Of a DNA stretch of 64,000 nt, positions 9,464-12,334 are shown one piece after another. Source of the stretch: Candidatus Parcubacteria bacterium (GTDB lineage: Bacteria > Patescibacteriota > Minisyncoccia > Sungbacterales > SURF-37); contig QZJO01000013.1 of assembly GCA_003599755.1 (NCBI GenBank), positions 27,729-91,728 of the forward strand, given 5' to 3'. Made by a program: the position numbers and the translations under genes. Positions within the stretch are counted from its first letter, which is position 1. Every line of letters begins with the position of its first letter. A model generated the notes under the pieces. It was not told the origin of the DNA. It was given only the letters and a program-made list of their open reading frames with translations, and did no database searches.

Positions 9464-12334
9464 ATGCCGCGGCCGTACGACCCCAAAGCCATTGAAGCGA
9501 AATGGACCAAGCGCTGGCTCAAGGAAAAAACCTATGAGCCGAACTTTTTGCGCGCGAAACGTCCGTTTTACAACTTGATGATGTTTCCGTATCCCTCGGC
9601 CGAAGGCCTGCACATCGGCAGCGTGCGCACGTTTTCGGGCGTGGATATCTACGGGCGGTTCAAACGCATGCAGGGCCACGACGTATTTGAACCGATGGGC
9701 TTGGACGGGTTCGGCATTCATTCCGAAAACTACGCCCTGAAGGTCGGCAAGCATCCGGCGGATTTGGCCAAAGTCACGGCGAAAAATTTCTATCGCCAGC
9801 TTTCCGAGATCGGCAACGGGTTCGCCTGGGACGAGCGCTTGGAAACGTACGACCCGAAGTATTACCGCTGGACGCAATGGATCTTTGTTCAGATGTTCAA
9901 GCGCGGCCTCGCATACCGCAGAAAGCAGGCCGTGAACTGGTGCCCGTCTTGCAAGACCGTGCTTGCCGACGAACAGGTTATTTCGGGCGAATGCGAACGG
10001 TGCGGGACCGCGGTCGTCAAAAAAGACCTCGAACAGTGGTTTTTCAGAATCACCGAGTACGCCGATCGGCTGCTGAAAAACATCGATGCGCTCAACTGGT
10101 CCGAGAAGATAAAAATCGCCCAGAAGAATTGGATCGGCAAATCCGAAGGCGTGGAGATAAAATTTTCGCTGGAAAAAATCCCCGGCCAGAAAGACGGTGC
10201 TCACTCGGTTACGGTGTTTACCACGCGGCCGGATACGCTCTTTGGCGCGACGTTTCTCGTCATTTCGCCCGAGCTTGCTGATCAATGGATGCACGTGGGC
10301 TGGCGCGCGCCCGAGAAGGTGCGCCGCTACGTTGCCGCCGCGTTGAAGCGCCGCATCGGCGAACCCGCGGCAGGCGATCGGGCAAAGACCGGCGTGGATG
10401 CCGGCTTCGTGGCCGTGAATCCGGCGACCGGCGCGCGGATTCCGGTCTGGGTTTCGGATTACGTGCTCGCCGGCTACGGCACGGGCGCGATCATGGCCGT
10501 GCCCGCGCACGACCAGCGGGACTACGAGTTCGCCAAACAATTCGGCTTGGAAATCGTTTCGGTGATCGATCCGGTCACCGGTACGCCTCAGGAGAATCCG
10601 CGCGAGAAGAAAAAAATCGTCGCCTTCGTGGAAGACGGCGACGCGGTCCTGACCGTACAGTGGGGTCCGGAGCTTGGCGGGCGGTTGCTGATCGGCGGGA
10701 CCGTTGAGGACGGCGAGGATCCGGCGGCAACGGCGCGGCGTGAAATCGCCGAAGAAACGGGATATACCGACGTGGAACTTATCGAGCGGGCGCCGGAGAC
10801 CGTGCATCACCGATACTTCGCTCCTTCGAAGGGCATCGCCTTTCACGCCGCGGTAACGGTGCTCCGTTTCCGGTTGAATAACAAGAAACGGAACGCTCAG
10901 AAACTCGAAGAGAATGAACGGGGCAAGTTTGTAGTGGAGTGGGTGCCGAAATCTCAAGCGCTGCGGGAAGTCACTGATCCGCTGCATCGCTATGCGTTGG
11001 CGAAATACGGCGAAGGAATGGTATACGACGGGCCCGGCGTGCTCGCGCGCTCAGGGAAATTCACCGGCATGCCGTCCGAAGAAGCGAAATGGGCTGTTGC
11101 CGAGGCGGTCGGCGGCACGCGGGTGGCGCGCTACCGCCTGCGCGATTGGCTTTTGTCGCGGCAGCGCTATTGGGGCCCGCCAATTCCGATGATCTATTGC
11201 GACGCGTGCGCCAGGGCGAATAAAGGCGAGCGCGCGGACATGCCCGGATGGTATGCGGTACCGGAGCGCGAGCTCCCGGTGAAGCTTCCGCAGGTCAAAG
11301 AATTTCGGCCCACGGGCATAGGCGTATCGCCGCTGGCAAGCGTGCGTTCGTTTTACGAAGCGCGGTGCCCGGCCTGCAACGCGAAGGCCCGGCGCGAGAC
11401 CGACGTATCGGATACGTTTTTGGATTCGGCGTGGTACTTCCTCCGCTATCCGTCGGTGCGCGAAGCGAAACGGCCGTGGCATTCGGCGATCACCAAGAAG
11501 TGGCTGCCGGTGGCGAGCTACATCGGCGGCGCGGAACACGCGGTACTGCATCTGTTGTATGCGCGGTTCCTCACAATGGTGTTCCATGACTGGGGCATGG
11601 TGGATTTCGAAGAACCGTTCGCGACGTTCCGCGCGCACGGCCTGATCACCAAGGACGGGGCGAAGATGTCCAAATCCAAGGGCAACATCGTGAATCCGGA
11701 CGAATATTTCCGGCAATACGGCGCGGATACTATGCGTACGTACCTTGCCTTTTTGGCGCCGCTGGAACAGGGCGGCGACTTTCGCGACGAAGGCATTCGC
11801 GGCATTACCCGATTTTTGGAGCGTGTCTGGAAATTCTACGACGGCGCGCAGTTTTCCGCGCGGTCGGATAATGCGGTCGCGCGCGCCGCGCATCGGGCCG
11901 CCGACAAAGTCGGCCGCGACATCGAGGCGCTGCAATACAACACCGCGATCTCGGCGCTCATGGTATTGTTGAACGAATTCGAAAGGCGCCCGGACGCAGT
12001 GGGCAGGCGCGAAGCCATGCGGTTTCTCCAACTGCTTGCGCCGTTCGCGCCGTTCATTGCGGAAGAATTGTGGGATCGGTTAAGCGGGAAGGGAAGTATT
12101 CACTGCAGCCGTTGGCCCGAAGTCGATCCGCGGTTCCTCAAAGACGAGACGGTCCAGATCGCCGTGCAGATCAACGGCAAAGTGCGCGATCACATTGCGC
12201 TCGCGCCCGATACGGGGGCAGTAGATGCCCGGAAGGCCGCCTTGGCGCTGCCGAAAGTCCGCGAAATGCTCGGCGCCAACGAACCGAAGAAATTCGTCTA
12301 TGTGCCGGGACGCATCATTAATATCGTGATTTAA
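9464..12334 (+). CDS. leuS: Leucine--tRNA ligase carrying an inserted Nudix hydrolase domain
   Basis: [18 protein letters not shown]..., HIGH-region '[11 protein letters not shown]', editing-domain [12 protein letters not shown], 'KMSKSKGN', [18 protein letters not shown]. 956 aa, about 100-150 aa longer than typical. The extra segment contains a complete Nudix box [24 protein letters not shown] (see findings). Confidence 0.9.
   Translation: [956 protein letters not shown]

Follow-up and report, generated by a model that had tools for sequence, protein, structure and literature searches.

Domains added to aminoacyl-tRNA synthetases (aaRSs) are mostly terminal and mostly eukaryotic. In the canonical leucyl-tRNA synthetases (LeuRSs) of Thermus thermophilus (1H3N, 2BTE) and Escherichia coli (4AQ7), the Rossmann fold, the CP1 editing domain, the KMSKS loop, the anticodon-binding domain and the C-terminal domain follow one another in this order. 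The same order is found in the LeuRS (LeuS) encoded in a 64,000-nt stretch of DNA from a Candidatus Parcubacteria bacterium (GenBank assembly GCA_003599755.1, contig QZJO01000013.1, positions 27,729 to 91,728 of the forward strand; hereafter the window, to which all nucleotide positions of this locus refer), and here the editing motif TTRPDT and the editing Asp are likewise conserved. The window protein differs from the canonical enzymes in that a CP1 loop of about 13 residues in Thermus holds a Nudix domain of 138 aa, and in that it lacks the leucine-specific domain and reads HIGS for HIGH.

Among described systems, the isoleucyl-tRNA synthetase (IleRS) with an N-acetyltransferase domain (NF040702, a model among the NCBIfam matches listed) also joins a class Ia synthetase to an unrelated small enzyme; the window protein departs from it in its Nudix partner, its LeuRS host, the nesting within CP1 and the apparent exchange at two slots. 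CP1 (PF13603) is itself inserted into the Rossmann fold of LeuRS, and a domain-insertion survey classed it as “insertion-exclusive,” with zero host events among 213 (Protein Sci 2026, PMC13114784). In the window LeuS, by contrast, CP1 is the host, which makes this a two-level nested insertion. Free-standing Nudix proteins, such as the uncharacterised 2AZW of Enterococcus faecalis, the Ap6A hydrolase Ndx1 of T. thermophilus and the Patescibacteria proteins P0002 and L052, differ from the window Nudix, which is nested in the domain of another enzyme. A full-text literature search returned no description of a LeuRS-Nudix or of a CP1-hosted hydrolase. The LeuS-Nudix architecture is real, widespread and undescribed, while synthetase-fused enzyme domains in bacteria have a precedent in GNAT-IleRS.

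The leuS coding sequence is a single unbroken open reading frame (ORF) of 956 aa plus a TAA stop on the forward strand (9464..12334, +). In the alignment with T. thermophilus LeuRS 1H3N the break is sharp: Thermus residue 374 corresponds to residue 381 of the window protein and residue 376 to residue 520, and the insert is therefore about 138 aa long, covering aa 382–519 (10607..11020, +). Its position is inside CP1, which we take to be residues 224–417 of the T. thermophilus enzyme, in a loop of the editing domain. PF00293 matches aa 386–513 (nt 10619–11002) with 50.0 bits against a cutoff of 21.1 and covers profile positions 7–132 of 134, and the insert alone scores 54.5 bits against the same cutoff of 21.1. 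The initial annotation of the window, made from the letters alone, had claimed an in-frame Nudix domain of about 140 residues within LeuS and had expected the Pfam NUDIX match at residues about 370–510; the domain and the match are both where it had put them. The canonical Nudix box that it described is also present, at nt 10694–10765, one base away from its coordinates of 10693..10764; the strict GX5EX7REUXEEXGU match occupies aa 412–434 (10697..10765, +) and includes the metal-binding residues E427, E430 and E431.

An alignment of 36 inserts has a mean column identity of 32%, and within it G412, E427, E430, E431, G433 and W493 are invariant, while R426 and E485 are at least 90% conserved. 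E485 and W493 are the distal conserved Nudix residues (10916..10942, +). A census among LeuS proteins chosen by LeuS similarity, which is unbiased as to the box, finds it fully canonical in about 55 of 66 inserts. This conservation pattern indicates purifying selection on the catalytic site, and the inserted Nudix is probably catalytically active, because its metal-binding Glu residues are invariant. In the structure model the insert adopts the alpha/beta/alpha sandwich of the Nudix fold. A CP1 strand (aa 368–373) is followed by six residues and then by the first Nudix strand (aa 380–391), so that the linkers joining Nudix to CP1 are short, at about 6–7 aa.

The host protein is a LeuS by the TIGR00396 leuS_bact equivalog model, which it matches with 814.4 bits (cutoff 548.4) in two stretches parted by the insert. 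Pfam recognises the class I catalytic domain, PF13603, PF00293 and the anticodon-binding domain, and the comparison with T. thermophilus LeuRS 1H3N scores 694 bits. The full-length AlphaFold model has a mean predicted local distance difference test (pLDDT) score of 90.1 and a predicted template modelling score (pTM) of 0.80, with pLDDT values of 89–97 in the Nudix region. In Foldseek searches the model has the overall LeuRS fold and superposes on the solved LeuRS structures 2bte, 4aq7 and 3zgz, including the E. coli and Thermus LeuRS-tRNA complexes, with target-normalised TM-scores of 0.83–0.85. The GenBank entry (RJQ35963.1, our P0155) gives “NUDIX domain-containing protein” as its sole name, and relatives are annotated as “class I tRNA ligase family protein” or “alpha/beta fold hydrolase.”

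Along the gene, the class I HIGH signature reads HIGS, with the final His lost (aa 50–53; 9611..9622, +). The CP1 editing domain N-terminal of the insert covers aa 221–381 (10124..10606, +), where PF13603 matches aa 221–378 with 173 bits (profile positions 1–150 of 185), and it contains the T-rich editing motif TTRPDT (aa 253–258; 10220..10237, +) and AHDQRD with the conserved editing Asp350 (10505..10522, +). C-terminal of the insert, CP1 resumes from aa 520 to about 560 (11021..11143, +), aligned to Thermus residue 376 onward. These segments are followed by the KMSKS loop (aa 734–738; 11663..11677, +) and the anticodon-binding domain (aa 805–917; 11876..12214, +; PF08264, 65.7 bits). TTRPDT and D350 are invariant in the LeuS alignment, and TTRPDT is found in 117 of the 120 closest LeuS. 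TTRPDT, AHDxRD and KMSKS are kept in relatives with and without an insert. The claim that the synthetase motifs are intact thus stands for TTRPDT, AHDQRD, KMSKS and the anticodon-binding domain; it fails for HIGH and for the leucine-specific domain (Thermus residues 577–634), which is missing at nt ~11645–11660 (aa 728–732) and from the whole clade. The last His of the HIGH motif is gone in 116 of the 120 relatives (HVGN, HIGG, HIGS or similar), Nudix or not, and both losses are independent of the insert, being shared by insert-free members of the clade. Loss of HIGH is unusual for LeuRS, and Saccharibacteria-type LeuS retain HxGH.

More than 100 independent assemblies, produced by different studies, share the architecture, which bears out the earlier view of a chimeric enzyme and not an assembly artefact. 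Nothing but prior caution speaks for an artefact, a pseudogene, a split gene or an intein-like element excised from the mature protein. Besides the recurrence, the continuous frame and the confident full-length model stand against this explanation, and its probability is close to nil. An intein was considered separately and rejected: no Hint/intein domain is matched by Pfam, and the junctions lack splice-type residues (an N-terminal Cys/Ser, or a C-terminal His-Asn then Cys/Ser/Thr), reading NPRE followed directly by KKKIV on the N-terminal side of the insert. A search for flanking DNA repeats or mobile-element signatures at the insert gave short repeats at chance level only, and no compositional anomaly was found there.

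A genome scan with the insert as query, limited to one genome per species, yielded 148 relatives; in about 70 of the 80 loci kept from these, LeuS-N, Nudix and LeuS-C are colinear. In a search of 1.84 billion representatives all strong matches were either LeuS-embedded or short unassignable fragments, LeuS or LeuS fragments making up 70 of the best 150. Most occurrences belong to Patescibacteria, also called the Candidate Phyla Radiation (CPR), with hosts among Saccharibacteria, Paceibacteria/Parcubacteria, Doudna-, Giovannoni-, Kaiser-, Uhr-, Komeili-, Zambryski-, Levyi- and Magasanikbacteria. Gut metagenome-assembled genomes (MAGs) contribute a block labelled Bacilli, Tenericutes or Clostridia (several of L014–L041), one MAG is labelled Limnocylindria, and even a Woesearchaeota label occurs (also L045 and L060), all of these labels being the records' own. 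Either leuS has passed out of Patescibacteria by horizontal transfer in these cases, or the MAGs are mislabelled or mis-binned. The initial annotation had suggested looking for the insertion in related LeuS, and among the 120 closest LeuS, picked by LeuS similarity (the P-set), 66 carry a Nudix at the position of the window insert while 51 (805–874 aa) have no insert.

CP1 offers two insertion slots: site A at aa ~371–382, which holds the window Nudix, and site B at aa ~237–246, a hairpin just ahead of TTRPDT. In the window protein the site B loop (aa 237–246; 10172..10201, +) is empty and lies between strands 226–237 and 247–253. About 18 of the 66 Nudix-bearing LeuS add an alpha/beta serine hydrolase at site B, and one has a Ham1/ITPase domain there instead. 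In two of the 120 LeuS an alpha/beta hydrolase replaces the Nudix at site A, and in one it occupies site B only. These slot architectures were confirmed by Pfam. The alpha/beta inserts belong to PF06821/PF12697 (carriers include P0157, P0159, P0160, P0173, P0190 and P0194), and about two thirds of them keep the GHSxG elbow. A Nudix at site B is found in other LeuS (P0017, P0019, P0022, P0029). Further LeuS with alternative slot modules are P0175, P0197 and P0226, and L057 and L061, the last being a protein of 1465 aa with a Nudix and a further alpha/beta hydrolase; in P0156 an additional uncharacterised segment of 136 aa lies near reference aa 550. Every module found in the CP1 slots is a hydrolase.

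The same Nudix family has also entered an IleRS. A Nomurabacteria IleRS of 1477 aa (L049 5278–9708, identical to P0275) carries it just before the TTTPWT editing motif, with 216 bits against the type-4 hidden Markov model (HMM), together with a His_Phos_1 domain at aa 845–1004. Among the 120 closest IleRS, modules are sporadic (three His-phosphatases, one low-molecular-weight (LMW) phosphatase, one alpha/beta hydrolase and, in P0283, one GNAT), and the query P0275 is the only one with a Nudix. The LeuRS-Nudix pairing is therefore specific and no general class Ia feature. Related Nudix domains occur in other fusions, namely GNAT + Nudix + GNAT + M17 aminopeptidase (1318 aa) and inorganic pyrophosphatase + two Nudix (P0090 and P0046).

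The history of the module was followed with distance-based analyses. Pairwise distances of the LeuS core and of the Nudix are uncorrelated (Spearman rho 0.02 overall, −0.05 in the unbiased set and 0.15 in the loci), and at least six insert types can be told apart, less than 38% identical to one another, all at site A. In sliding windows the window protein is a mosaic: against L003, L001, L004 and L006 its identity is 30–60% over most of the length and 68–82% over aa 381–440, whereas against the closest cores, P0183 and P0162, it is 70–93% elsewhere and 18–38% over aa 361–500. A single ancient insertion followed by vertical descent was considered as the whole story and is ruled out by the uncorrelated distances and the mosaic profile. 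A vertical signal persists in part: the Nudix type agrees between nearest neighbours at 0.50 versus 0.22 in permuted data, and presence or absence at 0.80 versus 0.50. Pairs with 80–84% core identity have different Nudix types (P0190 versus P0194/P0216; P0170 versus P0235) or different insert content (P0226 versus P0268; P0222 versus P0251). In scores against the per-type HMMs, the free-standing Nudix proteins P0125, P0002, L052 and P0106 equal or exceed embedded modules of other types; since they interleave with the embedded types, the embedded modules form no closed clade. On these comparisons the history of the Nudix is decoupled from that of its LeuS host, and we infer that modules have been gained, lost and replaced. 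Exchange probably took place by recombination through the highly conserved leuS flanks of the insert, AVPAHDxRDxEFAKKF... on one side and ...YxGxGxLxNSGxFxG on the other.

Within the core, Nudix presence is tracked by the flanks (366, 369, 526 and 528) and CP1 264–313 only, in a test confounded by phylogeny. No residue of the LeuRS synthetic or editing site co-varies with Nudix presence among the LeuS relatives, with the same confounding, and the co-varying CP1 positions would fit structural accommodation, not altered chemistry. At the positions that track the Nudix, the residues of the window LeuS are those usual in proteins that have no insert, and a more recent acquisition of its insert would be consistent with this.

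On balance we favour, at somewhat better than even probability, a LeuRS of the normal kind within which an autonomous and active Nudix pyrophosphatase for small molecules is carried as an exchangeable accessory. The naturally variable CP1 surface loop at site A of the cell's ordinary LeuRS would house a self-contained Nudix pyrophosphohydrolase, the two enzymes sharing one polypeptide and most likely working independently. The LeuRS part would activate leucine, charge tRNA-Leu and edit through CP1 as usual. The ExxEE metal site of the Nudix would hydrolyse a small anionic compound of the nucleoside-diphosphate-X or (deoxy)nucleoside triphosphate type, in the manner of housecleaning or nucleotide-pool chemistry. 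The module would be a member of a family of small Patescibacteria Nudix enzymes, which free-standing genes encode as well, and small hydrolases (several Nudix types, the alpha/beta serine hydrolase, Ham1) would have been repeatedly gained, lost and replaced at the two CP1 slots. The likely benefit would be that the Nudix is always expressed along with an essential gene and perhaps sits close to an enzyme that consumes ATP, with no role in leucine proofreading.

For the substrate, Nudix profile and fold searches match ApnA (dinucleoside polyphosphate), nucleoside-diphosphate-sugar, DIPP, decapping and MutT-like enzymes to a similar extent, and none of the NCBIfam subfamily models reaches its cutoff against the insert. 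Characterised Nudix enzymes are only 19–21% identical to the insert, too distant for a transfer of substrate. The inserts are acidic (median isoelectric point (pI) 5.0–6.4, median net charge −2 to −9) on a basic host (pI 9.3), and a small-molecule substrate therefore fits better than RNA or tRNA. Ap4A-type compounds are candidate substrates; the asymmetric Ap4A/ApnA hydrolase subfamily of Nudix would be marked by a match to its own model or by close similarity to a characterised member, together with a Tyr about 16–18 residues past the box.

CP1 contacts the acceptor end of the tRNA. An RNA-directed Nudix, positioned by CP1 at the acceptor stem and acting on the end of a tRNA or another RNA by RppH-like removal of 5' pyrophosphate or by NAD/Np4N decapping, would draw on this contact, on RppH as the best NCBIfam match and on the decapping-type Nudix proteins AvrM14 and Dcp2 among the PDB matches. 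The RppH match is weak, however, at 24.3 bits for NF001938 against a cutoff of 116 and confined to the box region, so that the insert does not qualify as an RppH, and the acidity of the inserts is unlike that of RNA-binding Nudix proteins. RNase P, moreover, leaves tRNA 5' ends that are already monophosphate. We hold an RNA-end substrate to be highly improbable.

The initial annotation had proposed that the Nudix proofreads Leu-AMP or clears ApnA made by LeuRS. This proposal is unsupported, because the module is accessory (51 of the 120 closest LeuS lack an insert, and relatives with 81–84% core identity differ in theirs), because the slots also take an alpha/beta hydrolase or Ham1 and an IleRS harbours this Nudix family too, and because no synthetic- or editing-site residue changes with Nudix presence; ApnA stays a legitimate candidate substrate. 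Taken alone, a pre-transfer editor hydrolysing Leu-AMP or non-cognate aminoacyl-adenylates could appeal to the location of the module within the editing domain and to the hydrolase nature of all slot modules. An aminoacyl-AMP such as Leu-AMP is, however, a carboxyl-phosphate anhydride and no nucleoside diphosphate-X, and hence a poor Nudix substrate, and the aminoacyl-AMP hydrolases known to us are HIT/HINT proteins. Together with a module that close relatives dispense with or swap for mutually divergent Nudix types, and with unaltered synthetic and editing sites, this substrate chemistry makes adenylate editing scarcely credible.

Clearance of by-products deserves more weight. LeuRS yields dinucleoside polyphosphates from the reaction of Leu-AMP with ATP or other nucleotides, and a tethered Nudix that hydrolyses Ap4A, Ap3A or related adenylylated LeuRS products would act as an on-board sink for alarmones or by-products. 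The strong bias of Nudix modules to LeuRS favours this explanation, as does one genome with window-like synteny, TatD-X-LeuS-YrdC, in which a stand-alone Nudix (188 aa) lies 106 nt directly upstream of a Nudix-free leuS with an alpha/beta hydrolase at site B (L080 5782–9477). The adjacency does not recur: none of four other LeuS contexts without a Nudix insert has a Nudix neighbour. Coupled clearance is thus a possibility that we regard with some doubt.

We regard as rather unlikely a broader version of functional coupling, in which the two CP1 slots form an exchangeable quality-control platform wired to aminoacylation. If it were true, the cassettes (Nudix types, alpha/beta hydrolase and Ham1, with His- and LMW phosphatases in IleRS) would widen the editing repertoire, removing, at the synthetase itself, by-products, wrongly made intermediates or toxins directed against it, and lineages would swap the cassettes to retune this; aaRSs would thereby have a proofreading or protection layer that is new and confined to the reduced-genome Patescibacteria.

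A non-catalytic role, as a ligand sensor comparable to NrtR-type regulators that tunes LeuRS allosterically or as a CP1 brace that perhaps offsets the lost leucine-specific domain, is improbable. It could build on the short linkers, which imply rigid packing, on the co-variation of CP1 264–313 and the flanks with insert presence, on the absence of the leucine-specific domain and on one subclade in which the box has lost its Glu and Arg. Yet E427, E430, E431 and the box glycines are invariant in all types, that subclade included, and insert-free relatives also lack the leucine-specific domain, which leaves nothing to compensate.

Several observations weigh against the favoured reading of an independent, active accessory in a normal LeuRS. 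The subclade just mentioned has paired box changes, E to Q and R to A/T/S, and although ExxEE is kept its Nudix may be inactive. The HIGH motif of the host is degenerate. The bias to LeuRS is strong, with more than half of the clade carrying a Nudix versus one of 120 IleRS, and a passenger model accounts for it only through founder effects and recombination, so that functional coupling is possible. The Nudix directly upstream of leuS in the genome with window-like synteny likewise hints at a functional link.

The separate Nudix gene that the initial annotation noted at 44252..44731 (+) is real (PF00293, 55.9 bits) and is not the source of the insert. As a donor it was rejected since BLASTP aligns 11 residues of the box only (E = 0.08), and the box is all that the two share. 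In another genome a stand-alone homolog of the insert follows CYTH, HAD and LMW phosphatase genes in a co-directional run of phosphohydrolases (L052 669–3433). Upstream of the window leuS, the gap of about 590 bp to TatD (8876–9463) has a GC content of 0.61–0.68 and no recognisable gene; an ORF in it (8933..9373, −) has no Pfam match. In relatives the slot between TatD and leuS holds variable small genes, one of them a Nudix. Elsewhere in the window, ARAGORN calls a 90-nt tRNA-Val (tac) at 1397–1486, within the ORF at 81..2162; the call has no Rfam support and is probably a false positive.

What sets this architecture apart from the usual additions to aaRSs is that a second and, judging from its conserved residues, apparently active enzyme lies inside the proofreading domain of an essential bacterial synthetase, and that the nested enzyme would be a swappable cassette over a large part of Patescibacteria. 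One consequence is practical: annotation pipelines misname these LeuS proteins, and genomes can therefore seem to lack leuS, which distorts inferences on CPR completeness and metabolism. If the Nudix is a passenger, ultra-small genomes would park accessory enzymes within essential genes, and protein engineers would gain two naturally validated permissive sites in LeuRS. If it is coupled to its host, it would represent a new kind of synthetase-linked control of by-products or alarmones.

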